Positions 1-13,041 of a stretch of DNA of 64,000 bases are shown one piece after another (the first letter of the stretch is position 1; each line of letters begins with the position of its first letter). Source of the stretch: a virus; the IMG/VR virus record IMGVR_UViG_3300042945_003044. One strand, 5' to 3'. The notes beneath the pieces are model-generated. The model saw only the letters and a program-made list of their open reading frames with translations. It made no database searches and was not told the DNA's origin. Both the position numbers and the translations under genes were made by a program.

Positions 1-151
1 GCTCGCTGAAAGCCTTGATTTCCCCAGCCTTCACGTTCGCGTGAACGTCGCCAGGGAGCGAATCGGTCAGGCACGAACGAATCGAAGAAACAACCTCGTC
101 ACGATCCAGTTCATCGGCAACAATATCGACCACAAAACTAAACTTCTTCAT
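1..151 (-). CDS. hypothetical protein, 5' part only (MKKFSFVVDIVADELD...), runs off window
   Basis: ATG at 151 with upstream GAAAGGG SD; TTGACA-N17-TAAGAT promoter at ~194-222; frame open to window edge. Confidence 0.6.
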   Translation of the reverse strand, partial: MKKFSFVVDIVADELDRDEVVSSIRSCLTDSLPGDVHANVKAGEIKAFSE

Positions 152-352
152 TTGTAAACCCTTTCCAAAAGTGTTATCGAACCAAGTAAACCAATCTTAC
201 CTAATGAATCATCACTTGTCAAGAGTCTGCCAGATGGTTTCTATTGTTGGCATCTGCTGTCGTCTTGTCGTGTGATGCTATCAGTATACTATAGTTATCG
301 GCACTGTCAACCCCGTTCGTGAATCATTTTTGAGATTTTCAAAGATTTGTTC

Positions 353-430
353 TAAGTCCTTGGAGCATAAGAAGTTACGTCAAGCCGGGCCGGCCCTGTT
401 TGCCGTAAGTGCTTACAGCATAAGGGTTTA
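353..430. repeat. 78-bp double-palindrome element copy 1
   Basis: TAAGTCCTT-ggagcat-AAGAAGTTA, 28-bp linker, TAAGTGCTT-acagcat-AAGGGTTTA. Confidence 0.95.
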
Positions 431-432
431 GG

Positions 433-804
433 TTATGAGAGAAATCCCTGACAACCCAAAGCCACAAGATCACGCAGCAACTTTTCAGCCGCTGCCGGTG
501 TGGGCAGGGTCACGCTGTTACGACCCTTGCCGTTGATATAACGACAAGCGTTGTAATCATACGCACCCATCAGTTCATCGCTCCAATCCTTCGACTCCTT
601 CAAGCCCCATCCGGTAGCAAGCCGAATAGCCTTGATGGAAGCGATCCGGTTGTCGGTAGTCATTCCGCCGGTAATGGTCACCGTTCGGTGCTGGTTCACA
701 CCCAAAGCAATCTCAAAAGCGTTCACGATCCGCTCGTAAATATCCAGATTGCAGTTAGTCGCAAGATTCATAGCCTCACGAACCGTCAGTTCCAACTTAA
801 TCAT
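433..804 (-). CDS. ribosomal protein L7/L12 C-terminal-like domain protein
   Basis: RIASIKAIRLATGWGLKESKD matches the L7/L12 CTD motif KIxxIKxxRxxTGxGLKEAK. Confidence 0.75.
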   Translation of the reverse strand: MIKLELTVREAMNLATNCNLDIYERIVNAFEIALGVNQHRTVTITGGMTTDNRIASIKAIRLATGWGLKESKDWSDELMGAYDYNACRYINGKGRNSVTLPTPAAAEKLLRDLVALGCQGFLS

Positions 805-805
805 C

Positions 806-1219
806 TCAAATCCTTTCTTCCAAAACGTAAACTTGCTTGCCTTGTGTAATTAAAGTAGCGTATTCGCTATCGTCCCAAATAAACTCGTTGCTATCACTTT
901 CTCGTCGCCAGTGTGGGTCACGAATCGGATTATAGTATACCTTTTCAAGATTGTCAACAGGCAAATCCTTGCGAAGCATCACTTCCTCACACTTTACCCA
1001 TCCACTAACATCATGCACACCAGCCTCAAATACCTGTTTAGCCTTATTCGGTCTGTTCCACAATATACAACCCCTCATTTCCAACTGATATTCTTTGGGG
1101 TCGTAATAGTATACATCAACAGTTTTTCCACCTTGTTTAACCTTAACTTGCCAATGCATATAATGATCCCCTTGGCTAAGATGGAATCTAACTTCGGCGT
1201 GTAGTGGTTTCGGTTTCAT
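806..1219 (-). CDS. hypothetical phage protein (start revised to MKPKP, probably leaderless)
   Basis: TTGACA-N17-TATAGT promoter lies inside the longer ORF call; ATG is 6 nt after the -10 box. Confidence 0.7.
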   Translation of the reverse strand: MKPKPLHAEVRFHLSQGDHYMHWQVKVKQGGKTVDVYYYDPKEYQLEMRGCILWNRPNKAKQVFEAGVHDVSGWVKCEEVMLRKDLPVDNLEKVYYNPIRDPHWRRESDSNEFIWDDSEYATLITQGKQVYVLEERI

Positions 1220-1259
1220 ACTTATACTATACCTTATCGGCCAAATCTTGTCAAGTCCT

Positions 1260-1655
1260 TTAGAATTTATTTGTAAAATCTTTCGAGATGCCCATCTGCT
1301 CTTGCACATCGCTATCTGTTAGCACGTCCTCGTCCATCATAAAATCCATATCATCAAAAAAGATTTCAATATCAACTTCCCCATTGGGATTAAAAAGCCA
1401 AGCAAAATTCATGATCATAAAATATGCCGTAGCCTGAACCCAAGATTCCACCTCTCCGGAATGCAGTTCGATAGTATTGCGGTTTTGGTAGACATACTCT
1501 ATGGCAGCCCGCTTAGTATCGCTGTTCATATTATTCCAAACAGGAATATCAAACTTATTTAGTTCGCTAAACAGACTCCCGTCAACAGACCACTCATTCT
1601 TATATGTATTATAAGTTTCTTCGATCATCCCAACAGCAATAGCACGACACTGCAT
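1260..1655 (-). CDS. hypothetical protein, acidic C-terminus
   Basis: 131-aa ORF with AGGAG SD. Confidence 0.7.
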   Translation of the reverse strand: MQCRAIAVGMIEETYNTYKNEWSVDGSLFSELNKFDIPVWNNMNSDTKRAAIEYVYQNRNTIELHSGEVESWVQATAYFMIMNFAWLFNPNGEVDIEIFFDDMDFMMDEDVLTDSDVQEQMGISKDFTNKF

Positions 1656-1674
1656 AATATACTCCTATTGTTCA

Positions 1675-1718
1675 CTGACTACAGCCACACCAGCCAAATC
1701 CGAAGGATTAGGTCAGAC
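1675..1718 (-). repeat. ~44-bp hairpin-containing repeat, copy A (copy B at 4807-4850)
   Basis: ctgactacagccacaccagccaaatccgaaggattagg vs ctgactacacccacaccgcccaaatccgaaggattagg. Confidence 0.85.
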
Positions 1719-1867
1719 AGATAGATTGGGTTATGCCATACTCGGCCTTGCATTTAACCGCGGCTTCTTTGATATCATTCTGCCAACGGCCCTCATCTAT
1801 CGCCTGTATCTAAGTGTACATCTATTATCGGGTCTTGTCAAGAGAATTCTTTAGAAGAAAATTTCAA

Positions 1868-1940
1868 TAGGAGCGGTGGGACTCGAACCCACACTGGAAG
1901 GATTTTAAGTCCTTTGACTCTGCCATTGGTCTACGCTCCC
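1868..1940 (-). tRNA. trnL: tRNA-Leu(UAA), short variable loop, CCA not encoded
   Basis: Cloverleaf: GGGAGCG/CGCTCCT acceptor stem, AAGGA-CTTAAAA-TCCTT anticodon arm, GTGGG-TTCGAGT-CCCAC T arm; own TTGACA-N17-TATGAT promoter at ~1951-1979. Confidence 0.92.
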
Positions 1941-1998
1941 GAGTCGGTCTATCATACTATGATATTCGTCATTTGTCAACCGATTCTTTAATTTTTCC

Positions 1999-2076
1999 TA
2001 AGTCCTTTCGGGATAACGACTTACGATGAACGCGGCCCGCCCGATTTGCTCTAAGTGCTTTGGTAATCAGGAGTTA
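1999..2076. repeat. 78-bp double-palindrome element copy 2
   Basis: TAAGTCCTT-tcgggat-AACGACTTA ... TAAGTGCTT-tggtaat-CAGGAGTTA. Confidence 0.95.
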
Positions 2077-2192
2077 CCGATATACCACCAATGGCATCGT
2101 TGGCAAAACAACCAAATAATACCATTATGGTCGTATTTCCACACCAGATTATCACACGCGCCACACGGGCAAATATCACTAAGAGTTTTCAT
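2067..2192 (-). CDS. 41-aa Cys-rich micro-protein, putative zinc ribbon (not in ORF track)
   Basis: MKTLSDICPCGACDNLVWKYDHNGIIWLFCQRCHWWYIGNS*; overlaps the upstream gene end; stop lies inside element copy 2. Confidence 0.55.
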   Translation of the reverse strand: MKTLSDICPCGACDNLVWKYDHNGIIWLFCQRCHWWYIGNS

Positions 2193-2352
2193 AAACTAAC
2201 TTCACATACTTGTCCACAAGTTCGGATACTGCGATCTCATGAGTAGAAATAAGTTCTTTAACTTGGCTCACATTATGCTTATTTACAGCGGCCATTCTAT
2301 TTCTGAAAAAACTCAGAATATAAACCATAGCCTTATCTCTATCCTCAGTCAT
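2179..2352 (-). CDS. hypothetical protein (start revised to MTEDRD)
   Basis: ATG overlaps the end of the upstream gene; GAGGGG SD. Confidence 0.6.
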   Translation of the reverse strand: MTEDRDKAMVYILSFFRNRMAAVNKHNVSQVKELISTHEIAVSELVDKYVKLVYENS

Positions 2353-2662
2353 ACAACCCTCTAGTATATTCTTCTGGAATAATTGGACACCAACTCTTAG
2401 CCCGTTCCTCATCGTATGGAAGCCAGAACGGAGCATCACAAGCGTCACAAGTCCACGGTTTGGCTTGGTTGGTAAAAACGTGCTGGCAAATCTCTATCTC
2501 TTTATCTACAACCTTTTCATTATTTTCATTATAATAGTATGTTTCAATCTTGCGATCTGGATGATAAGAATAGTGACCAATCCCTATACCAATATTGGGA
2601 CCAAAGTAATAAACCCTCTGCCCAACAGCAGGCGGATTCTTATGAGAGTTATTCCACTCCAT
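2345..2662 (-). CDS. hypothetical protein
   Basis: 105-aa ORF, GGAGTAGG SD, operonic spacing. Confidence 0.7.
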   Translation of the reverse strand: MEWNNSHKNPPAVGQRVYYFGPNIGIGIGHYSYHPDRKIETYYYNENNEKVVDKEIEICQHVFTNQAKPWTCDACDAPFWLPYDEERAKSWCPIIPEEYTRGLYD

Positions 2663-2665
2663 TAT

Positions 2666-2890
2666 TTACCTACTCCTTCCAACAATCACACATTTCATAC
2701 TAATATCACTATCAGTATACTTAACACACTCATGAGGTCCATAATACCACTTATCTTCATCGTTCACATTCAATACAATATCCTCAGTTCTCAGGCTAAG
2801 GTCATTAAACCCACCCTCATAACCGAGAGTAAGAACCCGCATATCGGACGGATAGTTCTTCAACTGCTCAATAAGTTCGTTAACGGTCAT
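2666..2890 (-). CDS. hypothetical phage protein (MTVNELIEQL...)
   Basis: Common phage MTVxELIxxL N-terminus; TAATG coupling to upstream micro-ORF. Confidence 0.7.
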   Translation of the reverse strand: MTVNELIEQLKNYPSDMRVLTLGYEGGFNDLSLRTEDIVLNVNDEDKWYYGPHECVKYTDSDISMKCVIVGRSR

Positions 2891-3006
2891 TATTTCCACC
2901 TAAAAGTAAATTTAGTAGCCTCATTATCACAAACGAAAGTGAAGTATGCTAGAAAGAACATGGTCAAAGACGGGAAAAATAGAATTATCTTACGAAAGAT
3001 TCTCAT
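2890..3006 (-). CDS. 38-aa hydrophobic micro-protein
   Basis: MRIFRKIILFFPSLTMFFLAYFTFVCDNEATKFTFRWK*; tightly packed between neighbours. Confidence 0.5.
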   Translation of the reverse strand: MRIFRKIILFFPSLTMFFLAYFTFVCDNEATKFTFRWK

Positions 3007-3008
3007 GC

Positions 3009-3146
3009 TTAGTCCTCAGTAGCATCATCAATATACCACTCGTATCCTAGTTCGTCAATAGTATCTTCTAATACTTCAATAATATCATCAGCATCTTCAG
3101 AATCTAGATCAATTCCCGGTATATCAAAAACAACATAAACCTTCAT
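3009..3146 (-). CDS. 45-aa highly acidic micro-protein
   Basis: MKVYVVFDIPGIDLDSEDADDIIEVLEDTIDELGYEWYIDDATED*; AAGGA SD. Confidence 0.65.
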   Translation of the reverse strand: MKVYVVFDIPGIDLDSEDADDIIEVLEDTIDELGYEWYIDDATED

Positions 3147-3164
3147 TTCATTTTCCTTGTATTA

Positions 3165-3556
3165 AAACCAGCGGAACCATTTACGATCCGGTTCCTATAG
3201 CCCACACCTATAACTTTCAAGGTTTGGAAACCGCCCACGCTGCTTCACTGCTTTCGGGTACCTAATATCAGGCAGTTTATCAGAGGCAACGGTTACTGGT
3301 TGTATTGGTCGTGGTGAGGATGCTATCCCCCATAGATTGGCATTACTATACAACGTATAAGCCCGTTGTCAACCCCGGCGATTGCTTCGCTGAACGGGAG
3401 GTTTATCGTAATGGCTTATCCCAACCTAGTCCCTGAGCATGGACCCACGAAAGTTTGTATTGTTAGGACCGATTGTAGAAGACGTTTCCTAGGACATCAA
3501 TTACCGCTTTTACCGGCTACTCGGCCCGACATAACCAACAAGCGTTTGCTTGTTCT
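3165..3556 (-). ncRNA. candidate large structured non-coding RNA
   Basis: ~400 nt with no credible sense ORF, downstream of a TTGACA-N16-TAGAAT promoter; several stems (ACAAGC/GCTTGT, CCCGTT/AACGGG enclosing GCGA/TCGC, GGGGAT/ATCCTC, GGAACC/GGTTCC). Confidence 0.45.
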
Positions 3557-3586
3557 TTCATCATTCTACTATCTATTATCGGCTTG

Positions 3587-3886
3587 TCAAGAGGGTTTCT
3601 TTAAAAATTTTTTGATGACGAAAAACGCAACTAACCCAAAGCCCAACAGTACAAGAGATGAAGGCTCTGGCACAGGATTGATAGGGGTATGATCCTTAAG
3701 AACCGCATTATAAAACAAATACAAGGCTTGACCACCATCATTATAAACATACAAAGAGTCGTACTCGGTTTGTATGAGTCTATCTGTAGTAAAATCAGAA
3801 TATAGACTATATGGGTCTGAATACCAAGTACCGGTGTTTATCCACACCCCATTCTCATACCCGTATCCATACAGAGGATAATCCAT
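3587..3886 (-). CDS. PEP-CTERM sorting-signal protein (start revised, probably leaderless)
   Basis: C-terminal VPEPSSLVLLGFGLVAFFVIKKFLKK is PEP + TM + basic tail; the TTG 'start' at 3922 is the -35 box of TTGACA-N17-TATAAT. Confidence 0.8.
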   Translation of the reverse strand: MDYPLYGYGYENGVWINTGTWYSDPYSLYSDFTTDRLIQTEYDSLYVYNDGGQALYLFYNAVLKDHTPINPVPEPSSLVLLGFGLVAFFVIKKFLKKPS

Positions 3887-3950
3887 GCTTGCCATTATAT
3901 AATGTATCGTCGGTTTTGTCAATCACTCTTTAAAAAATATTTTTGTGATG

Positions 3951-4028
3951 TAAGTCGTTGTGATATAAGCACTTGCGACGAGCGGGGCAGCGCAAACTCG
4001 CCCTAAGTCCCCTTGGGCAAAGAACTTA
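3951..4028. repeat. 78-bp double-palindrome element copy 3
   Basis: TAAGTCGTT-gtgatat-AAGCACTTG ... TAAGTCCCC-ttgggca-AAGAACTTA. Confidence 0.95.
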
Positions 4029-4041
4029 GAGCGAGCCGCGT

Positions 4042-4524
4042 TCAGATACCGGCTTCTTCTGGATCGTCTTTGAAGAATTCAGCCATATCAAACTCATTCC
4101 ACAACGCAACAGGAATCATATCCTTACTAGGATAGTCCACATAATTATCAGCACCATTATCCCAAATACCGCAAAAGGCAATACCCGGTTCCCAATAACT
4201 AGCCTTCACATTATATCCCAACTCTACCAGTTTGTCATACAAGCCAACAGGAGGACTCCACGCACTATCAAAAGAACAATTTACTTCATTACCAACCCTA
4301 GTGGCCTTCAGCCCATGTCTCTCCTCTTTATCTGTACCAATATCCGCCCCAATATCCCACTTAGTTCCCCAATTATCTATTTGCCAACTATACCAATCTT
4401 CTCCTTCTGGCAGAGGCAAAAACTCCGCACAGGCCTTACCTAAATTATAGGCTTTCTCAAAACGATCAACCATAGCAGAATCAGTATGCTCAACAGTCAA
4501 TTTGTTCAAACACCAATTTGGCAT
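4042..4524 (-). CDS. DUF1281/YubB-like ferredoxin-fold protein
   Basis: Motifs MPNWCxN, WYxWxxxNWGTKWD, FDSAWSPP, YWEPGxxFCG. Confidence 0.8.
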   Translation of the reverse strand: MPNWCLNKLTVEHTDSAMVDRFEKAYNLGKACAEFLPLPEGEDWYSWQIDNWGTKWDIGADIGTDKEERHGLKATRVGNEVNCSFDSAWSPPVGLYDKLVELGYNVKASYWEPGIAFCGIWDNGADNYVDYPSKDMIPVALWNEFDMAEFFKDDPEEAGI

Positions 4525-4535
4525 TGCCGGTATCC

Positions 4536-4742
4536 TTAGTTATTGGAAGGGGTCACAGAGTTCTCACACTTTTCAATAATTTTGCTCATAATAAACTTAT
4601 GAAACAGACTCTCTACTGCAAAAATAGAATCGGCTCTAACAGAAACAGGTACATCCCTCATTTCAGTAATACCAACAATAGTTTCGGTAAAAGCACTAAT
4701 ATCCTGAGCAATCAGATCATACTCTGTAGATACGGCTTGCAT
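4536..4742 (-). CDS. hypothetical protein
   Basis: AGGAGG SD; TTGACA-N17-TAAACT promoter upstream. Confidence 0.7.
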   Translation of the reverse strand: MQAVSTEYDLIAQDISAFTETIVGITEMRDVPVSVRADSIFAVESLFHKFIMSKIIEKCENSVTPSNN

Positions 4743-4806
4743 AGCAGCCTCCTTTTGATACAGTTTACACTAACTATTATCGACTGTCAAGACCACATAA
4801 CTTTTG

Positions 4807-4850
4807 CTGACTACACCCACACCGCCCAAATCCGAAGGATTAGGTGTGAC
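4807..4850 (-). repeat. ~44-bp hairpin-containing repeat, copy B
   Basis: Near-identical to 1675-1718; overlaps the stop codon of 4840-5007. Confidence 0.85.
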
Positions 4851-5007
4851 CAACTAACAGACTTCTCTCTATCCTTGTGTTAGACCCGAATTTTTCAAAC
4901 GCTTTTCGTAATGCGTCAATTTCACTTGGAGATATGACGTATCCTACAAACTTATTATCTTTGAACACTATCCAAGATTGTCCAATGCTATGGTCTTGTG
5001 TTTGCAT
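4840..5007 (-). CDS. 55-aa micro-protein, probably leaderless (not in ORF track)
   Basis: MQTQDHSIGQSWIVFKDNKFVGYVISPSEIDALRKAFEKFG...; ATG 6 nt after TAGAAT; resembles 9872-10063. Confidence 0.65.
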   Translation of the reverse strand: MQTQDHSIGQSWIVFKDNKFVGYVISPSEIDALRKAFEKFGSNTRIERSLLVGHT

Positions 5008-5062
5008 GTTTTGATTCTACAAGTTATTATCGGTTTGTCAATAGAGAAAACTTTATTTGTCG

Positions 5063-5140
5063 TAAAGCATTTGGAGACAAGTACTTATGTCGAATTTTGC
5101 GGCGCCCCTCGGCCCTAAGTGCTGCCGTAGCAACAACTTA
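5063..5140. repeat. 78-bp double-palindrome element copy 4
   Basis: TAAAGCATT-tggagac-AAGTACTTA ... TAAGTGCTG-ccgtagc-AACAACTTA. Confidence 0.95.
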
Positions 5141-5175
5141 GGGTGAGGGTTTCACCGATTGGCGAAGAAGACAGT

Positions 5176-5580
5176 TTAGATAAGGTGAGCCAGACCCGTA
5201 GCAAAGAGAGCCTGAGCCCCAACCGGCTTGCGGCACTTTTCAGTACGCTCCGCATAGAAGTTGCGAACCGTACCATTGGGCATTTCGCAAGTCACAAGGT
5301 GGCGAGTACGCTGAAACTCGGGATCATTCGCACGATAGCGACTGCGAGCATTCAGCCTACGAATAGAGTAGTCATCCAGAGTGTGGACTTCCACAACCTT
5401 TGCCAGATAACGCTCCGGCTCGCCCTGCAACGGCTGCTTATAGATGAAGTTGTAGATTTCACCCGGCTTAGCAGACGCGAGCGTACCACGAACACCACCA
5501 TAAACAGCATAGGCAAGAGCAGCAATCAGAACAGCAGTAACACCAGCCAGAATACCACCAAACAGAAGAACATCGTTCAT
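5176..5580 (-). CDS. membrane-anchored hypothetical protein
   Basis: N-terminal TM helix (VLLFGGILAGVTAVLIAALAYAVY); GAAAGGG SD before MNDV; alternative start at 5616. Confidence 0.7.
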   Translation of the reverse strand: MNDVLLFGGILAGVTAVLIAALAYAVYGGVRGTLASAKPGEIYNFIYKQPLQGEPERYLAKVVEVHTLDDYSIRRLNARSRYRANDPEFQRTRHLVTCEMPNGTVRNFYAERTEKCRKPVGAQALFATGLAHLI

Positions 5581-5647
5581 AAAAACCCTTTCAGTTAGAA
5601 AACCCTCAATCAACATACCACAAGTCTACACTATGTATCGACTCTTG

Positions 5648-5884
5648 TCAAGCCTCAACATTAGAAAAATTTTCGGTCCAAAACTCTTTGAGTTCGTCCA
5701 GATCAATTCCGCTATCGTTCCACGCCACATTATCTAAAGTTTCAATAGAGCCCATCTCTCGCATTTGTTCTACGAAATCCGAATAATCGTCACAACTTCT
5801 AGCAAGGTTATATAAACCCTCGTCGTTTGCAATCCAGAGTTGAACGTTCCATGTCTGATAGTTTTTGCAGCCGTTGTAAGTCAT
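5648..5884 (-). CDS. hypothetical phage protein (YNGxxNYxTWNVxLW type)
   Basis: Motif typical of small phage proteins; GAAAGGG SD before MTYNG. Confidence 0.75.
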   Translation of the reverse strand: MTYNGCKNYQTWNVQLWIANDEGLYNLARSCDDYSDFVEQMREMGSIETLDNVAWNDSGIDLDELKEFWTENFSNVEA

Positions 5885-5967
5885 CTTTTTCCCTTTCGTG
5901 TGTGCCGTAATCATACCATATAGATCGGCAAATGCAAGAGGAAATCTTTAGAAAAATTTTTTAGACG

Positions 5968-6045
5968 TAAAGCGTTGTAGCATAAGTAGTTACGTCGAGG
6001 CCGGCGGCGCCCGCTCGCCCTAAGTGCTTATGCACAAAGGGTTTG
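5968..6045. repeat. 78-bp double-palindrome element copy 5
   Basis: TAAAGCGTT-gtagcat-AAGTAGTTA ... TAAGTGCTT-atgcaca-AAGGGTTTG. Confidence 0.95.
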
Positions 6046-6055
6046 CGGAGAGCTT

Positions 6056-6292
6056 TTATTCGAAGTCTACGAAAATTACTTGATTGTAGCCGCGAGGCTT
6101 AATCTTGAAACTATCGCCATAATCTTCGGTTTCTGCCTTTACGCCCGTAAACCCGGCCAATTCCTTAGCCTTCTTCACAATGCTACGCTGCGAAGCGTCA
6201 CGCTTGGGAATAAACTCGTAACGGTTTACCCAGCCGTAGTTAGCCTCGCCACCAAAAAGATCCGTATGGGTCACAACGCACTTCATGCTCAA
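6056..6292 (-). CDS. hypothetical phage protein (TDxFGGEANYxWVxR motif)
   Basis: AAGGAG SD; plausible small phage protein. Confidence 0.7.
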   Translation of the reverse strand: MSMKCVVTHTDLFGGEANYGWVNRYEFIPKRDASQRSIVKKAKELAGFTGVKAETEDYGDSFKIKPRGYNQVIFVDFE

Positions 6293-6297
6293 TCTCC

Positions 6298-6501
6298 TTA
6301 CAGGCTCACGGTTTCAGAACGAAAAGAACACACACTTAGGCCACTAGCAGCCACAACAGTATCCAACATATCACCGATCAGTTCTGCTCTTTCCATAGCA
6401 GTTGACGTATCGCGATCAGCAACTTCCAACACAAACTCTTGGTCGATTGACTGTTCGCCATTCTCGTTTTCAACCACAATATCAAAGAAGCGGTACTTCA
6501 T
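6298..6501 (-). CDS. acidic hypothetical protein
   Basis: GAGG SD; promoter at ~6528-6556. Confidence 0.7.
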   Translation of the reverse strand: MKYRFFDIVVENENGEQSIDQEFVLEVADRDTSTAMERAELIGDMLDTVVAASGLSVCSFRSETVSL

Positions 6502-6585
6502 ATGATCCTCTCTTTCAGATATAGACTAGTTTATACTACTAAGATCGGCTTGTCAAGCGGTTATCTTGAAAAAATTTTTTTGATG

Positions 6586-6663
6586 CAAACCCTTATGAGA
6601 TAACGAGTTAGGACAAATTTTCGCCGCCCGCCTCGTCCTAAGTCCTTTGGTGGTAAGGATTTG
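6586..6663. repeat. 78-bp double-palindrome element copy 6
   Basis: CAAACCCTT-atgagat-AACGAGTTA ... TAAGTCCTT-tggtggt-AAGGATTTG. Confidence 0.95.
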
Positions 6664-6670
6664 TGTCGAA

Positions 6671-6925
6671 TTATTCTCCGCCGTAATAATCTTCGCCTAG
6701 CGGGGTGTCATCACCATAATATCCATAATCCTCATCGGTTCCCCATCCTGCGGAAGCGAGGCCACTCTCATGATCCCCATCCATACTATCATCATACGAA
6801 TCATCCCAACTGTTCTCCAATTCATCCGCGTCAACTTCCCCGTAGTGAAAATCGTTGTAATCGTCGTAGTTCATATCGTCCTCGCAAGAGTTATCGGGAT
6901 CATAGCACGGGTCAGGATGGCTCAT
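6671..6925 (-). CDS. extremely acidic D/Y-rich protein
   Basis: 84 aa, many D/E, no K/R; contains SMDGDHESGLASAGWGTDEDYG; GAGG SD and own promoter. Confidence 0.75.
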   Translation of the reverse strand: MSHPDPCYDPDNSCEDDMNYDDYNDFHYGEVDADELENSWDDSYDDSMDGDHESGLASAGWGTDEDYGYYGDDTPLGEDYYGGE

Positions 6926-6987
6926 TTCTTTTTCCTCTTTACTAGTGTTATCGGGATTCTATCCTAAAAACTTTAGGCTGTCAAGCC

Positions 6988-7185
6988 CTATTCCACAATC
7001 CACGTTTCGCCGTTTTCATCCATCATCTCGACAGGGGCAAAATCATCCACACAACCCACAACATCTGCCCAATCCCAAAAGTTGACTTCCACGCCGGGGT
7101 CGTCAATAGGCTCGACCATAGGCTCAATCGTACCGTCTTGGGCCATTTGATCCAGAATCAAGTTGATTTCTTCGAAAGAATACAT
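6988..7185 (-). CDS. acidic hypothetical protein (start revised to MYSFEE)
   Basis: The longer ORF call runs through a promoter and element copy 7; AAGGA SD before ATG 7185. Confidence 0.7.
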   Translation of the reverse strand: MYSFEEINLILDQMAQDGTIEPMVEPIDDPGVEVNFWDWADVVGCVDDFAPVEMMDENGETWIVE

Positions 7186-7290
7186 TTTTGACTTCCTTTG
7201 GGGTTTCACTTGTGATACTCGAATTATACATAGTATATCGGCCAAGTCAATAGCGTATCTATAAAAAATCCAAAAAAAATTTTGTTGATG

Positions 7291-7368
7291 TAAAGTGTTG
7301 CAGTATAAGGAGTTACGACGCGGCGGGCGGCGCGGCCTCGCCCTAAGTCGTTTAGCGACAAGGCTTTG
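7291..7368. repeat. 78-bp double-palindrome element copy 7
   Basis: TAAAGTGTT-gcagtat-AAGGAGTTA ... TAAGTCGTT-tagcgac-AAGGCTTTG. Confidence 0.95.
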
Positions 7369-7370
7369 CG

Positions 7371-7682
7371 TCAATTTCCTACGACCATGCCATCCATAAA
7401 AGGATAGGATTTGTCGTTGATTTTCACAAACCATTCAAAATTCTTTTGATACACATAACGTGGGCTATACTGGTTGATACGATCCTTAGTGGTCAGAGTT
7501 TGCCAGCCGCCACTATTCAGCGTATAGGTACCATCTTCGTGAATCTTGACCACATAGGTACTGTGCAGCATAATCCCAACCGAGCCATCATGCAGAATTT
7601 CCGCATAGGTATTATTACCAACCTTGCGACGAGTAGCATTACGCTTGCCGCGAACCATAGTAACCGCTTCGGCGTGTGTCAT
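7371..7682 (-). CDS. hypothetical phage protein (LNSGGWxTxTTKxRIN motif)
   Basis: Motif typical of phage early proteins; AAGGG SD. Confidence 0.75.
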   Translation of the reverse strand: MTHAEAVTMVRGKRNATRRKVGNNTYAEILHDGSVGIMLHSTYVVKIHEDGTYTLNSGGWQTLTTKDRINQYSPRYVYQKNFEWFVKINDKSYPFMDGMVVGN

Positions 7683-7741
7683 TTTGTTTTCCCTTAGTGT
7701 TTATTGATACGATTAGGATTTTACTAGATAAACTTTATTTG

Positions 7742-8029
7742 TCAAGCACTATTTCTACGCATATCATTATCCTGACCAAGAGCGGAGAAGTTGACCATAT
7801 CGGTACTTGAAGAAAGATTTTCGATCTGCTCCAGAACCTCAGCAACACCAGAAAAGTCTAGCCAGCCGATAACATTATTCGTGACAGGAGTGGTATAGTC
7901 GAGATCGCCATCTTTACCAATAACAGCAACCTCGAAAAGCCCATTCTTTCCACCATATGACCCAAGATGAGAAACCACACTAGCCCCATAACCATTATCA
8001 AACTTATAGATTTTTTGATAGTTAGACAT
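7742..8029 (-). CDS. hypothetical phage protein (FxNGYGASV...GLFEVAV motif)
   Basis: Motif typical of phage early proteins. Confidence 0.75.
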   Translation of the reverse strand: MSNYQKIYKFDNGYGASVVSHLGSYGGKNGLFEVAVIGKDGDLDYTTPVTNNVIGWLDFSGVAEVLEQIENLSSSTDMVNFSALGQDNDMRRNSA

Positions 8030-8162
8030 TTTTCTTTTCCTTCATTTCCTTATAAAGTTTTTCCAGAAACTTGACTTGAGCCAAAGCACGGCATGTTTCC
8101 TGCTTCATTCTGGCTTCTGTTTTCTGAAATCCGCTTACTGGCTTCTTCTTCGTTTTCATCAT
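8022..8162 (-). CDS. small basic protein (start revised to MMKTKKK)
   Basis: AGGAG SD; the TTG of the longer call is the -35 box. Confidence 0.6.
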   Translation of the reverse strand: MMKTKKKPVSGFQKTEARMKQETCRALAQVKFLEKLYKEMKEKKNV

Positions 8163-8239
8163 CTTTCTCCTACACTCGATTGTATAGTATAGATCGGCAA
8201 GAGTCAAGCATAATCTTTAGAGGATTTTTATTTTGTTCG

Positions 8240-8317
8240 TAAAGTATTGCCGCATAAGGAGTTACGTCGAGCGGGGCGGCGCCGGCTCGCTCTAAGTCTT
8301 TTAGCAGTAAGGGTTTA
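8240..8317. repeat. 78-bp double-palindrome element copy 8
   Basis: TAAAGTATT-gccgcat-AAGGAGTTA ... TAAGTCTTT-tagcagt-AAGGGTTTA. Confidence 0.95.
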
Positions 8318-8346
8318 GGTTCAGTTTTTTGTTCAGTGGTGAACGA

Positions 8347-8688
8347 TTATTCATCGCTCCCCTTGAACGCAAACGGTGAAACTTCCTCATCACAAGCCAG
8401 AATCGCACCATATTGGTGAGCAAGAGCCTCAACCCGTTCCTTTGAACCCGGCTTTCCAGCCTTTACGATCATGGTATCCTCACCACCCACAAATCGCGGA
8501 TCGGACTTCTCTTTCTTCACTTTGCCAAGGTTGCGAAGTGCCTTGCGGTTGAACTTCAAAACCTTTTCACTCTTGATCGGCCCATACTCACCATCCGCAA
8601 GAGAGGGTTGGTGGGGAATCGCAATCCCGAGAAAGCACATACGAGCCTGTTTCTTAGCGTTTTCGATAATCTCAAATTTCTGTTTCAT
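8347..8688 (-). CDS. hypothetical protein (start revised to MKQKF)
   Basis: GAAAGGG SD; promoter at ~8712-8741. Confidence 0.7.
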   Translation of the reverse strand: MKQKFEIIENAKKQARMCFLGIAIPHQPSLADGEYGPIKSEKVLKFNRKALRNLGKVKKEKSDPRFVGGEDTMIVKAGKPGSKERVEALAHQYGAILACDEEVSPFAFKGSDE

Positions 8689-8744
8689 GTTTTCCCTTTC
8701 GTGTTGGTCTGATTCTAGCAAAACTCTTTGGTGAGTGTCAAGCC

Positions 8745-8933
8745 CTACTTTGAATAATTGTAGGCATCCAAACCCAACTTGCGACGAATCACGCGAATCG
8801 TTTCCAGATCCTCAATGAGCATCTTGGTCAGATTCTCACTTACTCCGCTTTCCACCAGAGAAGCCATATTTTGCTCACTGGTTTTCAGCAGAGCAGCCAC
8901 AACGATTTCTTCACTCACAGTCAACTTTTCCAT
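8745..8933 (-). CDS. hypothetical protein
   Basis: Own TTGACG-N17-TAGAAT promoter. Confidence 0.65.
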   Translation of the reverse strand: MEKLTVSEEIVVAALLKTSEQNMASLVESGVSENLTKMLIEDLETIRVIRRKLGLDAYNYSK

Positions 8934-9009
8934 CTTTCACTCTCTCTTTCTGTACCAACTATTCTACCAAACTTTTCCCGCCTCGTCAACCCCTATTTCG
9001 GGGGAAGCC

Positions 9010-9219
9010 TTAGATTTTCCAGTGTGAAAACTTCAGCGTGAACACCTGATTAGGATACTTGCTAGCGATATACGCTTGTGCAGTTTCCTTCCGATTGTCG
9101 GAAGCCGAAACACCCTGAACAACCGTACCGTTGATAATCACACTCCACACACGACGCTTACGAATCTTCGGGAGGCTAGCAATCAAACCGTTCACACTCA
9201 TAACCTTTTCCATCATCAA
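9010..9219 (-). CDS. small basic hypothetical protein
   Basis: Own TTGACT-N17-TATAAT promoter. Confidence 0.65.
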   Translation of the reverse strand: MMMEKVMSVNGLIASLPKIRKRRVWSVIINGTVVQGVSASDNRKETAQAYIASKYPNQVFTLKFSHWKI

Positions 9220-9304
9220 CTCTCTCTTTCTTTCTTATGCTGAATTATACCTTAATTATCGTCAAAAGTCAAATGGAATCTTTAGAAAATTCTCGGATTT
9301 TCCC

Positions 9305-9466
9305 TAAGTCCTTATTTGGCCTAGAGTTGCGCCGACCCGCTTCGTTTAGGTAGCACAGTGGACAGATGGTATCGTGAGAAATCGCTCGTAAAGCGTTGCT
9401 ATCAAACAACTTACGGCAAATTTTGCGGCGCCGGCTCGCCCTAAGTCTTTATGTGTCAACCACTTA
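9305..9466. repeat. 78-bp element copy 9 (9389-9466) plus an extra degenerate single palindrome (9305-9329)
   Basis: TAAAGCGTT-gctatca-AACAACTTA ... TAAGTCTTT-atgtgtc-AACCACTTA; extra TAAGTCCTT-atttggc-CTAGAGTTG starts 84 bp earlier. Confidence 0.9.
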
Positions 9467-9668
9467 GGTTAAGAGTTAATCACCCAAGCAACCACACAAC
9501 CGAAAGCAAAGGATACAGAAAGCACTACCTTATCGTAAAGATTCATTATTTCTTCCTTACTGGAAAAACAAGATCACAAACAAACCAAGAACAACCAATA
9601 CCAACAACAAATCCCACACCCATCCACATCCAATCTATATTTAGATCGACCATCCCTGATTCCTTTCT

Positions 9669-9890
9669 TTAATCCTTTTTATATCCTACGAGCCACCTAG
9701 TACCATCCTCATCCGTACGAATAAATCCATCGGATTCAAACCCTGCGTCACTCAATTCCTTTTCGGCCATTCGCTTCACTATAGTATCACCTACAGCCAG
9801 GACAGCACAAACCACGCCCATGATAACTATACCAACCATAAACAGGAAAATCATCGTGATTAGTTCAGGACTCATTTGGTAAGATTCCAA
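9669..9890 (-). CDS. small membrane protein
   Basis: Single hydrophobic TM segment. Confidence 0.65.
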   Translation of the reverse strand: MESYQMSPELITMIFLFMVGIVIMGVVCAVLAVGDTIVKRMAEKELSDAGFESDGFIRTDEDGTRWLVGYKKD

Positions 9891-10063
9891 GTATAGACGT
9901 TATCGTTCACCTTTACGCATCTTACATCAGAGATCGGCAAATGTCCAGTACGAACATTAGAGCAATCTGGAAAGAACTCTCGCACAATCTTATATGCTTC
10001 AAGCGTATTCTTAGCACGAACGAAACCAACAGCCGAACCATTCTGATAAACTTCCAAAGTCAT
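9872..10063 (-). CDS. small hypothetical protein (MTLEVYQNG...)
   Basis: GAGG SD; promoter at ~10094-10122. Confidence 0.65.
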   Translation of the reverse strand: MTLEVYQNGSAVGFVRAKNTLEAYKIVREFFPDCSNVRTGHLPISDVRCVKVNDNVYTWNLTK

Positions 10064-10164
10064 CTTCTTTTCCTCTTTCTTTCTCATACCATTATTCTAC
10101 ACTACTAATATCGGCTTGTCAAGCCTAGCCACATGAATTTTTTCAGATTTTTTATTTTGCGTTG

Positions 10165-10242
10165 TAAGTCTATATGTAGCATATACTTACGTCGAATTTC
10201 GCGGCGCCGGCTCGCCCTAAGTGCTTACGCAGCAACTACTTA
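10165..10242. repeat. 78-bp double-palindrome element copy 10
   Basis: TAAGTCTAT-atgtagc-ATATACTTA ... TAAGTGCTT-acgcagc-AACTACTTA. Confidence 0.95.
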
Positions 10243-10678
10243 CGTTTACTATTCATATCCTTAAGAATAGCAACAATCATAGCCAATTCGTTACTCGTCT
10301 GATTCGGATTCATCATATTCCCTTTCATCTTCTTCGAGCCAATCAGCATAATCATACAGTGGGTCAGGGCAACTCATCTCTTTTCTCCTTTACTTCTTAT
10401 ATCGGTATTATACAGGAAAATCTTTAGGGGTCAATACTGAACATTTGTTTTTTCTAGAATAGAATCTAAATGAATTTCCCCATTCTCTACAACCCACCCA
10501 TATTCCTTAGTAGGTGTATACGTCCCAAGATAATATTTCCCATCACTATATCCCTCGTATCCAACCCCAAATCCCATGAACGTGATAGCCAAAATCATAT
10601 CGTACATTATAGCCTCTCTTTCTTATACATACAATATCGGCTAATCCCCATACATACTTTAGAGATATTTATTGGTCA

Positions 10679-10756
10679 TAAACCCTTACTGCATAAGTAC
10701 TTAGGACAAATTTTGCGGCGCCGGCTCGCCGTAAGTCCTTTATTCACAACACCTTA
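10679..10756. repeat. 78-bp double-palindrome element copy 11
   Basis: TAAACCCTT-actgcat-AAGTACTTA ... TAAGTCCTT-tattcac-AACACCTTA; the terminal TTA is the stop codon of 10754-10951. Confidence 0.95.
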
Positions 10757-10951
10757 CGATGCGTGAACAAACACTTCCTTAGAGGGTTGGCCTACTGAAC
10801 AAATGGTCACAAGCCAATTCTTCCCACTACCATCTTCAGGCCGAATACCATTCACAAGCCCCTTAACAGGCTTACAGTCGTGATTCACAAGAATAATCTC
10901 ACGACGAGTACGCATAGATTCCACAATCCAATTCAAAGAATAGACGCTCAT
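10754..10951 (-). CDS. small hypothetical protein
   Basis: 65 aa, AGGG SD. Confidence 0.65.
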   Translation of the reverse strand: MSVYSLNWIVESMRTRREIILVNHDCKPVKGLVNGIRPEDGSGKNWLVTICSVGQPSKEVFVHAS

Positions 10952-11001
10952 TTGTTTCCCTAAGTTATCTTATGCCTAATCGATCAATACTATACAAACG
11001 T

Positions 11002-11151
11002 TTAGAGGATCGTACCATCACCACGAATACGATACATGATACCACCGATACTATACAGGCTAATACCCTCGCCCATATGCTGAACAAACGTAGCCGAGTA
11101 ACCGTGTCGAGCAACCAACCTGCGAATCGTATTTTGCACTTGGATTGTCAT
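11002..11151 (-). CDS. 49-aa micro-protein (not in ORF track)
   Basis: MTIQVQNTIRRLVARHGYSATF...; AAGGA SD; TTGACA-N18-TATAAT promoter. Confidence 0.6.
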   Translation of the reverse strand: MTIQVQNTIRRLVARHGYSATFVQHMGEGISLYSIGGIMYRIRGDGTIL

Positions 11152-11210
11152 TTGTTTTCCTTTTCTCTTGTGTTCCTATTATACAGTATCGGTTATGTGT
11201 TTGTCAAGCG

Positions 11211-11357
11211 TTAGTTTTTCATACTCTCAAAAAACTTCTTTACGCTTTCATCATTCATTCTCATATCCTTATTCACAATCGGCATAGCATATGCCTTTTC
11301 ACGAATCTCAAGATTCTTGATTCTCTTACTTGCATTCTTCATAGTCTTATTCATCAT
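11211..11357 (-). CDS. 48-aa basic micro-protein (not in ORF track)
   Basis: MMNKTMKNASKRIKNLEIREKAY...; first gene after element copy 12 and its promoter. Confidence 0.55.
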   Translation of the reverse strand: MMNKTMKNASKRIKNLEIREKAYAMPIVNKDMRMNDESVKKFFESMKN

Positions 11358-11453
11358 CTTCTTTCTCTCTTTCTTTCTTACTTCTTATATCGACATTATA
11401 CCAAAGATTCTTTAAAAGTCAATACTATACAGATGTTTTTTAAAAAATAGACA

Positions 11454-11531
11454 TAAGTTGTTGTCAGATAAGCACTTAGGATCAGTTTTGCGTAGGTAAT
11501 TATGCGTAAGTTGTTGTTCTATATACACTTA
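11454..11531. repeat. 78-bp element copy 12 (array-leading copy, AT-richer linker)
   Basis: TAAGTTGTT-gtcagat-AAGCACTTA ... TAAGTTGTT-gttctat-ATACACTTA; 53-bp period retained. Confidence 0.9.
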
Positions 11532-11646
11532 GGGGGTTTTTTCGTTTTAATCAACCCATTTTCCCCACAGGCAAAAATCCTGGGGTGGTATATACTAAAT
11601 AAGGACCACATAGATCATAATGTAGTACCTAAACTATTAGGATAGC

Positions 11647-12891
11647 CTATAACACCCTTCTGATTCTCTTGTATCCTATAAGCTTAAGCTCTCCCGTTTC
11701 CTTATTTTCTGCTACGACTTTAACCTCATTCCATCCCCTAACAAACATCCTGCGATTTAATCCAACATCAAACCCATGGTATCTGTCGCCCCATTGAACC
11801 AAATTAGCTCTATATCTATTAGCGTCAGTAACCACTACCTCTCTACCATTGATCAGAATCTTGACCCTAACTCTATCATGGATATTTTGAGAATCCAGGC
11901 TCCATCCTCTTACCCTATTAATATTCATTATATCCACAGCGCCCGCTACTCTCTCATTCCAGCTTTTAACCACAATAGGCATTGACGGAGCCACTACTTT
12001 AAAAGAACTTTCCCCCAAGGCCCCCTTAACATTTAAAGATCCGCCCGTTAACACCTTATCTCTTAGACCTTCACTAAAACTCACACTAGAGAATATTTTT
12101 GACCTAATTTCCCCAATACTCATAGACCCATACTTCCTGCATAATGCCGATATGGTTCCGGTTACTTGAGGAGCAGCCATACTAGTTCCACTCAGACTAC
12201 CATATCTATTACCGGGTAGTGTTGAATATACGGCCGTTCCCCTAGCTGCCAAATCCACACTATTTTTTCCATAATTAGAAAACCCCGCTAGAGTCATATT
12301 ATCTGACCCACAAGCTGCCACAGCTATAACATTATCAATATTGTAAGAGCTAGGATATCTAGGTACAGAGTCATTATCCGACCCACTATTTCCTGCAGCA
12401 CTTACAAAAATTATATTTGCCTCATTAGCCCTAGATATGGCCCCCTCTAAAGCACTAGAATATCCAGTGGTCCCACCCCAACTATTATTAATAGCAACCA
12501 CATCCACCCCAAAATTCTTTTTCATCATCACAATATAATCTATAGACCTTATAGCATCGCCCGTAAAACCAAATCCACTATCATCCTGAAATTTTAAAAC
12601 CATTATGGAGACCGCCCCATAACTAGCCACTATTCCACCCACATGAGTACCATGACCGTACCCATCCTGCACCACATTATTATTTCCGCTAAAATTCCAC
12701 CCATAGATATCGTCAACATATCCATTACTATCATCATCAATATTATTGGCCACTATCTCCCCAGGATTTTTCCACAAACTATTTTTTAAAGCTTCATGAT
12801 TAATATCTATTCCACTATCTATAATAGCAACTATTGGAGCTAAAAGAGACCTATTTTCCAGACTTTCTATCCCTAGAGCGCTCTTTTTCAT
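11647..12891 (-). CDS. S8 (subtilisin-family) serine protease with Planctomycete-type LExRxLLA leader
   Basis: Catalytic motifs IIDSG, HGTHVGG, GTSMA; N-terminus LGIESLENRSLLA. Confidence 0.9.
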   Translation of the reverse strand: MKKSALGIESLENRSLLAPIVAIIDSGIDINHEALKNSLWKNPGEIVANNIDDDSNGYVDDIYGWNFSGNNNVVQDGYGHGTHVGGIVASYGAVSIMVLKFQDDSGFGFTGDAIRSIDYIVMMKKNFGVDVVAINNSWGGTTGYSSALEGAISRANEANIIFVSAAGNSGSDNDSVPRYPSSYNIDNVIAVAACGSDNMTLAGFSNYGKNSVDLAARGTAVYSTLPGNRYGSLSGTSMAAPQVTGTISALCRKYGSMSIGEIRSKIFSSVSFSEGLRDKVLTGGSLNVKGALGESSFKVVAPSMPIVVKSWNERVAGAVDIMNINRVRGWSLDSQNIHDRVRVKILINGREVVVTDANRYRANLVQWGDRYHGFDVGLNRRMFVRGWNEVKVVAENKETGELKLIGYKRIRRVL

Positions 12892-13041
12892 AATCGAGTC
12901 CTTTCGTTTTTTTGTGACAATTTTTTGCCAAAGCTCAGCCTACCACAAGAAAAATTGAAGTCAACCGGATTGCTACTACGGGGTGTATATTACTATATTA
13001 CTAATATTAATAACTTTTTTTAGTAGGACAATTTATTATTT

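Follow-up and report, generated by a model that had tools for sequence, protein, structure and literature searches.

An 85-bp, four-site DNA element adjoins densely packed early promoters and stop codons in uncultured phages

The window analysed here is a stretch of 64,000 nucleotides of viral DNA (IMG/VR record IMGVR_UViG_3300042945_003044), in which twelve copies of an 85-bp element, the last of them degenerate, punctuate a dense array of small genes (Table 1). The modules consist, in this order, of the element, an UP-like A/T tract, a TTGACA-N16-18-TATAAT promoter, a leader and a small gene. About 30 sigma70-type promoters (score of at least 10 out of 12) are present on the coding strand within 12 kb; in this region a promoter follows nearly every element, and about half of the promoters have no element. 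A preliminary description of the locus had listed the distances from the upstream stop codons to the element, and its values match ours exactly when the T of the element's first TAA (model position 4) is counted as the starting point. Three of these stops had been ascribed to micro-ORFs called by eye, two of which look truly coding: in the 25-aa ORF, all seven substitutions among five homologues (7/7) are synonymous third-position changes, and in the 41-aa CxxC ORF the changes are mostly synonymous and every cysteine is kept. The remaining one, beginning MMNPNQ, is a candidate.

Table 1. Copies of the 85-bp element in the window, with the upstream stop codons and the promoters that follow them (gaps are counted from the stop to the first TAA of the element).
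Feature	Position	Strand	Gap (nt)	Upstream ORF and stop	Next promoter and remarks
Element copy 1	349-433	-	2	Gene 433-804, TAA at 433-435; final gene base is element position 1	
Element copy 2	1995-2079	-	inside	41-aa CxxC ORF 2067-2192, TGA (2067-2069) within site 1	
Promoter after copy 2	1979-1951	-			Drives tRNA-Leu at 1868-1940
Element copy 3	3947-4031	-	13	Gene 4042-4524	3922-3894
Element copy 4	5059-5143	-	35	Gene 5176-5616	5041-5014
Element copy 5	5964-6048	-	10	Gene 6056-6286	5937-5910 (TTGCAT/TATGAT)
Element copy 6	6582-6666	-	7	Gene 6671-6925	6556-6528
Element copy 7	7287-7371	-	2	Gene 7371-7682, TGA fused to element edge	7250-7223
Element copy 8	8236-8320	-	29	Gene 8347-8688	8207-8179
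Element copy 9	9385-9469	-	2	25-aa micro-ORF 9469-9546, TAA fused to element edge	Next strong promoter distant (9272-9244), half-element remnant in between
Element copy 10	10161-10245	-	inside	Candidate ORF 10236-10316 (MMNPNQ), TAG within site 1	10122-10094
Element copy 11	10675-10759	-	TAA shared	Gene 10754-10951; stop is the element's TAA (position 4, 10754-10756)	
Element copy 12	~11450-11534	-	~113	Protease gene 11647-12891	11422-11395; degenerate element without GC core
Promoter-only junction (example)	6956-6990	-		65-aa gene with stop TAG, followed by GGC and TTGACA	

The element is of constant length and nearly two-fold symmetric, with a GC-rich core enclosed by four TAAGnnCTTA-like sites of 10 bp. 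The sites are arranged as two pairs, with 15 bp between the sites of one pair, and the pairs lie 53 bp (five helical turns) apart on either side of the core. An alignment of 77 distinct copies contains no gap across the 85 nt, and the TAA, TT, AA and TTA motifs occupy invariant positions. Since the copies are pairwise only about 65-70% identical, yet retain these motifs and the exact length, the element appears to be under purifying selection. Of 191 copies, 184 are oriented with transcription, and each of five whole related contigs carries 12-18 copies, every one inside a single region of 15-19 kb that makes up about 10% of the genome. A search of Rfam with the element returned no match. The element is an 85-bp, four-site DNA module that is so far undescribed.

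The accumulation of stop codons on or beside the element edge, pointed out in the preliminary description, is not due to chance and recurs in about 30 related contigs. We compiled 69 independent junction families whose upstream ORF has 50 codons or more; their stops peak at model positions -2/-1 (13 families), +4 (8) and +27 (5), where about two would be expected if they were spread evenly over -60 to +60. The element itself closes two of the frames with its TAA (position 4) and its TAG (position 27): the TAA ends frame 1 in 83% of copies, and in 99% frame 0 has met a stop by position 59. In 54% of copies frame 2 runs open through the element, and ORFs in this third frame have their stop fused to the element edge. 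We used 76 promoter-only junction families as a control; in 24 of them the upstream ORF stops at the TGA within the -35 box TTGACA, and in another 7 it stops no more than 6 nt from this box. Given that 24 of 76 ORFs end in the -35 TGA where there is no element, the abutment belongs to the whole region and not to the element alone. The stop placement is real but not peculiar to the element: where promoters of this region have no element, the gaps between stop and signal are equally short, and ordinary gap lengths had been named in the preliminary description as speaking against its reading. We explain the stop-codon pattern by extreme packing of the genome around a promoter element of protein-binding type, and not by gene capture of the integron kind. 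Upstream ORFs stop on or beside the element because the region has no nucleotides to spare, with the TAA and TAG of the element closing two frames and the edge stop the third, and ORFs ahead of element-less promoters likewise run into the -35 box. Such a pattern is ordinary in itself; it illustrates the degree that compaction can reach, with regulatory DNA, including the -35 TGA, supplying the stops.

Of more interest than the stops is the element, which is phase-locked to strong early promoters and is a recombination hotspot. The distance from its last TTA to the -35 box falls into three classes of 20-22, 28-34 and 41-44 nt, corresponding to 2, 3 or 4 helical turns, and the spacers are UP-like A/T tracts. 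When one value per downstream-gene family was counted (46 families), the vector strength at a period of 10.5 bp was 0.715 (p ~6e-11). Hence, the geometry of the element is locked to the downstream promoter and not to the end of the upstream gene, and its sites share a helical register with the core promoter and precede an A/T-rich UP tract, as at an upstream activator site. The quantised spacing could partly come from modular A/T-tract units of about 10 bp, or from common descent of whole modules, and not from contact between a protein and RNA polymerase. Several observations count against a promoter module: about 40% of elements have no strong sigma70-type promoter just downstream, some elements in relatives are followed by sigma54-like motifs instead, and element halves are inherited together with the upstream gene (left halves 86% identical, against a background of 64%) more than with the downstream gene (68-69%). 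Moreover, about half of the promoters in the region are element-less, so that promoters can exist without it.

Comparison of relatives revealed that the element also marks sites of rearrangement. Blocks bounded by elements occur in permuted order in contigs L005, L012 and L016 relative to the window, and in L019 and L011 copy 8 is split into two chimeric elements by an inserted one-gene cassette. About 10 chimeric elements were found, with crossover intervals all within positions 19-47 and mostly in the core; in L005, for instance, the right half of copy 12 is joined to a normal left half. Contig L013 has no copy 6, nor its promoter and the 67-aa gene 6298-6501, and L002 carries a full module of element, UP tract and promoter between the two genes of the promoter-only junction listed in Table 1. 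Overall, 61 of 233 homology ends fall in elements, which account for 9.2% of the sequence (a 2.8-fold excess); 74% of breakpoints lie outside elements, and repeated leader sequence flanks the indel that comprises gene 9010-9216. The earlier suggestion that genes are captured up to the element boundary thus holds in so far as element-bounded blocks are permuted and inserted, crossovers lie in the core and one deletion is flush with the element edge; an integron-type mechanism does not hold.

We consider it fairly probable that the repeat is the protein-bound upstream part of composite early promoters, that stops abut it through packing, and that the repeats double as homology for recombination. 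The element most likely acts in double-stranded form, as the binding site of a dimeric or oligomeric protein; we infer the binding, the identity of the protein and the effect on transcription. The binder would be a host factor if the element boosts immediate-early transcription, and a phage protein if it later shuts early promoters; no HU/IHF gene was found in the five genomes. Since the element and the promoter/leader are repeated sequence, they would provide portable homology, at which recombination would shuffle cassettes in the style of the PeSL (promoter-early stem-loop) of T4-type phages. A similar layout is found at rRNA P1 promoters, where Fis sites precede an UP element and the core promoter, and at the p4/p6 sites of phage phi29. 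Here as there, several dyad sites (for a DNA-bending protein there, a putative one here) come before an A/T-rich UP element and a core promoter close to consensus, and their placement depends on the helix face. Unlike in these systems, the phage element stands at 2, 3 or 4 turns and not at one position, and the site sequences are unrelated.

Alternatively, the element might act as a protein-bound roadblock or insulator, stopping RNA polymerase that arrives from upstream and shielding early promoters from read-through, although we regard this as rather doubtful. It would suit a 12-kb region in which about 30 strong promoters are found but no intrinsic terminators, the nearly uniform orientation of the copies, and their position always between the end of a transcription unit and the next promoter, also directly after tRNA genes. 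The insulator proposed in the preliminary description agrees with conservation confined to motifs, as protein binding would produce, whereas phase-locking to the downstream -35 box would be superfluous for a roadblock and many gene-promoter junctions have no element. A precedent is offered by the stoperators of cluster A mycobacteriophages, i.e., 13-bp asymmetric sites for the L5 repressor, which binds as a monomer and halts elongation, distributed genome-wide in temperate phages (PMC9283540). They too are numerous protein-binding-type sites that point with transcription and sit in very short gaps between genes, within a region lacking classical terminators. By contrast, the phage element is 85 bp long, near-symmetric and confined to one region, with no evident repressor or integrase; the early ORFs, mostly of unknown function, gave no match to DNA-binding families, and a cognate repressor was not found among them. 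The preliminary description had also considered termination by the element as RNA. Its palindromic consensus, just 3' of stop codons, can be drawn as one long or three short hairpins, and a 3' UTR function in termination, RNase III-type processing or stabilisation could be imagined. However, fold energies of the elements compared with shuffles gave z mostly between 0 and -1.9 (two copies near -3), the predicted folds differ between copies, and the alifold consensus energy is -0.12 kcal/mol. Pairing in candidate stems equals the expectation for independent columns (74.2% vs 74.9% shuffled; 65.0% vs 66.1%), no excess of compensatory base-pair changes was observed in the 77 copies, and all the highest mutual-information pairs are adjacent columns. 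With no covariation to support it, a hairpin of the attC, terminator or processing type is rejected. An intrinsic (Rho-independent) terminator was rejected, as no GC-rich hairpin is directly followed by a U tract and no U tract was found after any element stem; the T run 8-12 nt past the element, behind an A run, is part of the UP-like tract. Terminator-like sites between 1 and 13 kb number 9, against 8.5 in shuffles, in agreement with the earlier remark that no hairpin-plus-U terminator accompanies the stops. Together with a strictly constant length, untypical for RNA loops, these data bring an RNA-level explanation close to refutation. Hardly more credible is a miniature repeat of the selfish kind (MITE/REP-like), invading intergenic gaps and serving no function for the phage. 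Its many copies, terminal inverted motifs, purely intergenic location and variable presence between relatives would fit, but the selection on motifs and length argues otherwise, as do the single orientation and region, the exchange of whole intergenic modules and not the element alone between genomes, the absence of target-site duplications at three inspected junctions, and the failure to find a transposase-type recombinase (PF00589/PF00239) in five genomes.

It is also improbable that the element is a site-specific recombination site, with a GC-rich crossover core between inverted binding sites and an unrecognised recombinase that excises and inserts cassettes of promoter, gene and half-elements. 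Integrons encode the tyrosine recombinase IntI beside the cassette array; their cassettes are promoterless and expressed from a common Pc promoter, and the attC site is recognised as a folded single strand of 57-141 bp, with conserved pairing, a poorly conserved sequence and, at the ends, RYYYAAC (R'') and GTTRRRY (R') as core sites. Similarly, the phage region consists of small genes arrayed in one orientation, with an imperfect palindrome close behind each gene whose first arm can supply the stop, and with repeat-bounded blocks that change order between relatives. The permuted blocks, the single-gene cassette between two chimeric elements, the restricted crossover intervals and the enrichment of homology ends would all be consistent with site-specific exchange. 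The end motifs (CCTAAR ... YTTASR) loosely resemble the attC core sites; identity with them was rejected, since the left end reads CSTAAR, with A or G as its last base in roughly 90% of the copies and not C, and the right end YTTASR starts with C or T and not G. Moreover, tyrosine (PF00589) and serine (PF00239) recombinases were found in none of five related whole contigs, four of them rated complete (for PF00589, 14 of 14 control genomes were positive). Crossovers do not occur at one point (29-41 vs 43-46) and coincide with the longest identical block, as predicted for homologous recombination. They lie in the centre of the element, whereas attC recombines at a terminal GTT core. Repeated leader or promoter sequence borders other indels, and most breakpoints lie outside elements. 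The phage element conserves sequence and length, whereas attC conserves its fold and varies in length, and each phage cassette has one or more promoters of its own. Hence, the integron/attC analogy drawn earlier was not borne out. If site-specific recombination were nevertheless at work, these phages would carry an integron-like system for shuffling early genes without a known integrase.

For T4-type phages, PeSL cassettes have been described (Arbiol et al., 2010, PMC2839356; Comeau et al., 2014, PMC4122927); in them, a promoter is partnered by a stable GC stem-loop that terminates transcription, and recombination between neighbouring copies forms mini-circles. As in PeSL, dense repeats occupy a hyperplastic early region rich in small ORFans, and the composite motif extends from the upstream stop codon through an A/T-rich tract and a strong sigma70-type early promoter to a Shine-Dalgarno sequence. 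In both, recombination between copies accounts for indels, replacements and permutations, and in our phages copies lie where insertions, deletions and replacements that distinguish close relatives begin or end. The stem-loop is the point of difference: the phage element, which shows no stable or consistent fold, no covariation and no terminator-like excess, is an 85-bp dyad motif of constant geometry, which precedes the UP tract with quantised spacing. The PeSL idea is thereby extended past T4-type phages, with a partner element that is not a hairpin, and the element provides an example, open to experiment, of the assembly and reshuffling of host-takeover regions in large lytic phages. The window phage is not an evident T4 relative; the carriers of the element are widespread uncultured phages of about 150 kb, mostly from freshwater.

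The element, a repeated 85-bp motif, is probably an undescribed, protein-bound promoter module of fixed geometry, and it is also a recombination hotspot. Its 12 copies of ~85 nt are confined to the minus-strand block at 1-12.9 kb, whose small genes mostly have unknown functions and which also holds about 30 near-consensus sigma70-type promoters; the element is absent from the remainder of the 64 kb, where structural genes (terminase, portal, fibres) occupy the plus strand from ~13 kb on. Along transcription, each unit runs from gene stop through element, A/T tract, TTGACA-N16-18-TATAAT and a purine-rich leader to the next gene. Among eleven different early ORFs compared with Pfam/PHROGs, the only matches were to unknown-function families (DUF7249, Kyano_Gp96), and megablast found no relative of the window among GenBank phages. 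Copies turned up by an exact-pattern scan in 21 IMG/VR stretches, which come from ~16 viral contigs (10-223 kb in length), and by a looser pattern in contigs from ~20 MAG bins of mixed taxonomy. Since these bins span mixed phyla and their element-bearing contigs are probably phage DNA binned in error, host inference from them was rejected. A profile search yielded 191 copies (150 distinct), 184 of which keep the majority orientation of their own locus. With a sequence-only model, five whole contigs (four rated complete) were found to carry 12-18 copies per genome, in each case all inside one 15-19 kb region. Seventy-seven distinct copies align without gaps over 85 columns, and the conserved positions form four TAAGnnCTTA-like sites (centres 8.5, 23.5, 61.5 and 76.5) with a GC-rich core between sites, often GAGCCGGCGCCGC, and invariant outer TAA/TTA triplets.

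Features of the window and of related loci (L numbers, loci from related contigs); window coordinates unless stated
Feature	Position	Strand	Remark
Element copies 1-12	349-11534	-	
123-aa gene	433-804		Missing in L001, where the preceding ORF terminates at the element's TAA
tRNA-Leu gene	1868-1940		
ORF-free stretch	3150-3560	-	95% conserved in L013/L019/L021, exceeding adjacent genes
Two consensus promoters before the ORF-free stretch	3590-3563; 3372-3345		
Tyr-rich ORF, ~100 aa	3587-3895	-	
Promoters with GCCGAT(A), examples	3590-3563; 6556-6528; 10122-10094		Motif in the -35/-10 spacer
Stops at TGA in TTGACA, examples	7745; 5651; 3590; 10434		Promoter-only junctions
Direct leader/RBS repeats, 27-42 nt	8910-8951; 9191-9232		Flank the 68-aa gene
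68-aa gene	9010-9216		Missing in L006 and L013
Half-element remnant	9300-9375	-	CCTAAAC ... ATAAGGACTTAGGG with GC-rich insert; separates copy 9 from its distant promoter; conserved in L005, L006, L019
Tandem hydrophobic micro-ORFs	9469-9652	-	34 aa (MVDLN...) and 25 aa (MNLYDK...), overlapping at TAATG
25-aa ORF of this pair	9469-9546		
L001 tRNA; element	~6090-6125; 6125-6209		Locus coordinates; tRNA 3' end abuts element
L018 tRNA; element	~5585-5620; 1583-1667 (as reported)	element -	Locus coordinates
Sigma54-type motifs, examples	L025:2528; L019:7152		Element-oriented coordinates, for several loci differing from stored locus coordinates

The preliminary description held that upstream stop codons abut the element as in integron cassettes. 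If the element is counted from the T of its first TAA (position 4 of the alignment), all the reported gaps are reproduced (2 nt, inside, 13, 35, 10, 7, 2, 29, 2, inside and a shared TAA), copy 12 being an outlier at ~113 nt. When junctions were clustered by upstream sequence into 69 independent families (upstream ORF of at least 50 codons), stops peaked at positions -2/-1 (13 families), +4 (8) and +27 (5), while 16 further families stop 3-20 nt and 13 stop 21-59 nt upstream. The internal peaks arise because the element's own stop triplets close reading frames: in 83% of copies one frame ends at the position-4 TAA, in 99% a second has ended by position 59 (at the TAG of position 27 or a TAA of position 18 or 57), and the third stays open across the element in 54%. 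All edge-fused stops belong to this open frame, and the T[GA]A at the edge, considered as part of the element and rejected as such, is not conserved where the stop lies elsewhere; hence, it is the gene's own stop that is pressed against the element. At element-less promoters of the same regions (76 independent families), 24 upstream ORFs end at the TGA within TTGACA, 7 more stop at most 6 nt before this hexamer and 14 slightly inside the promoter. As regards stop distances, this is the outcome that the preliminary description had named as counting against its reading. ORFs extend up to or into the next DNA signal, whichever it is, and abutment is a trait of the compact region, not of the element. 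The abutment is real and statistically non-random but equally present where the element is lacking, and compaction together with the element's own stop triplets explains it. Elements also lie directly after tRNA genes in related loci, which indicates that they mark transcription-unit ends generally and not protein stops alone. Of the three micro-ORFs counted in the preliminary description, the MMNPNQ ORF is a candidate and two are supported as coding: in the 25-aa ORF 7/7 changes among five homologues are synonymous third-position changes, and in the 41-aa CxxC ORF changes are mainly synonymous and every cysteine is retained. Given its exclusively synonymous changes, the 25-aa product is probably a real membrane micropeptide.

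The stop-to-element distance is unconstrained (0 to ~38 nt in most cases), whereas the -35 hexamer follows the last TTA at quantised distances of 20-22, 28-34 (peak 31) or 41-44 nt and, rarely, of about 10, 56-63 or 72 nt; hence, the element geometrically belongs to the downstream promoter. Taken as one value per downstream-gene family (46 families), these distances follow a 10.5-bp period with a vector strength of 0.715 (p ~6e-11), and inside one family the distance switches between 21 and 31. The window itself shows 20, 22, 29, 30, 31, 32, 33, 41, 43 and 43 nt. The spacer is an A-run/T-run/AAAGA tract, which we take to resemble a full UP element; spacers of the 42-nt class have equal length and unrelated sequences. 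The spacing classes could derive partly from 10-bp A/T-tract units or from whole-module descent. A strong sigma70 promoter just downstream is missing in ~40% of element copies, and about half of the promoters in the region lack an element. The best mechanistic analogy would be a row of protein-binding sites that lies upstream of a UP-element promoter and keeps helical register with it.

That the element acts as a folded RNA or single-stranded DNA was weighed in two forms and rejected. Three local stems pair in 74.2% of cells (74.9% in shuffled alignments) and one long stem in 65.0% (66.1%), compensatory changes in the stems are not enriched, and the top mutual information always links adjacent columns. 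RNA folds of single copies disagree with one another and mostly do not exceed shuffles, the alignment fold energy is ~0, and Rfam gave the element no family match at the gathering threshold or at E up to 1. Its palindromic look is due only to the fixed motifs. A terminator hairpin likewise found no support, as folds mostly resemble those of shuffles and intrinsic terminators are not in excess in the minus-strand block (9 sites vs 8.5 in shuffles). Fixed length, fixed motif spacing and lack of covariation do not fit a hairpin; together they characterise double-stranded DNA sites that bind protein. An HU/IHF-type binder of the phage (PF00216) was not found in five genomes.

In gene-order maps, indels interrupt a conserved backbone, and blocks bounded by elements are truly permuted: the window has g22 [E] g23 g30 g11 [E] g12 g15 [E] g0 ([E], element), and L005/L012/L016 have g22 [E] g12 g38 g15 [E] g23 g44 g11 [E] g0. 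In L019/L011, a one-gene cassette is flanked by two chimeric elements that jointly reconstitute window copy 8. Homology ends fall in elements 2.8 times as often as the 9.2% sequence share of elements would give, with 74% elsewhere; HSP end-points were rejected as exact breakpoints because they over-extend into the conserved repeat, and identity by element thirds and three-way chimera mapping were used instead. In about ten chimeric elements the crossovers map to positions 19-47, for the most part to the shared core, and not to a single point (29-41 in one case, 43-46 in others). Left halves of the element are co-inherited with the upstream gene (86% identity vs 64% background), right halves less so (71% vs 58%), and the downstream gene is weakly linked (68-69%), as expected since ~110 nt of recombination-prone regulatory DNA intervenes. 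Some events use repeated leader or promoter sequence and not the element: L002 carries a full element-UP-promoter module in place of the window's short promoter, and in L013 a 67-aa gene is missing together with element 6 and the promoter of that element. The repeats around the 68-aa gene are consistent with its gain or loss through leader-leader recombination.

A dedicated integron-like machine might shuffle such cassettes, but tyrosine and serine recombinases (PF00589, PF00239) were not found in five related genomes or contigs, and the integron reading is unsupported on every count considered, as there is no integrase, attC structure, attC core site or promoterless cassette. Homologous exchange at conserved regulatory repeats fits better; it has been proposed for the promoter-early stem-loops (PeSLs) of T4-type phages, the anatomy of which begins at the upstream gene's stop codon in an A/T-rich tract (PMC2839356, PMC4122927). 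PeSLs are the closest match to the element system, although they contain a stem-loop terminator, in whose stead the element places a non-folding dyad upstream of the UP tract. The stoperators of cluster A mycobacteriophages share an oriented, intergenic, protein-site logic with the element but differ in size, symmetry and genomic spread (PMC9283540).

Early promoters of the window carry a conserved GCCGAT(A) in the -35/-10 spacer and a (C/T)AAAGA box ~12 nt before -35; the two look like a sigma28-type promoter (TAAA-N15/17-GCCGATAA) set in among the sigma70 boxes, an arrangement that recurs in most relatives. Sigma54-type -24/-12 motifs (TGGCAC-N5-TTGCW, at least 10/11 matches) number 42 in 269 kb vs ~5 expected, in L025, L030, L034, L003, L008, L014, L019, L024, L052 and others, and none occurs in window 1-13500. 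Most are antisense, 9-19 nt after an element, some are sense at ~45 nt, and face-to-face pairs occur; the motifs may represent genuine sigma54 promoters or else a palindromic operator. The ORF-free stretch is a candidate for one or more structured ncRNAs, with no Rfam family hit either at the gathering threshold or with E relaxed to 1. The neighbouring Tyr-rich ORF has a PEP-CTERM-like tail (VPEP, hydrophobic stretch, basic residues), and its final codons overlap the next promoter, running through the UP-like tract and the -35 box.
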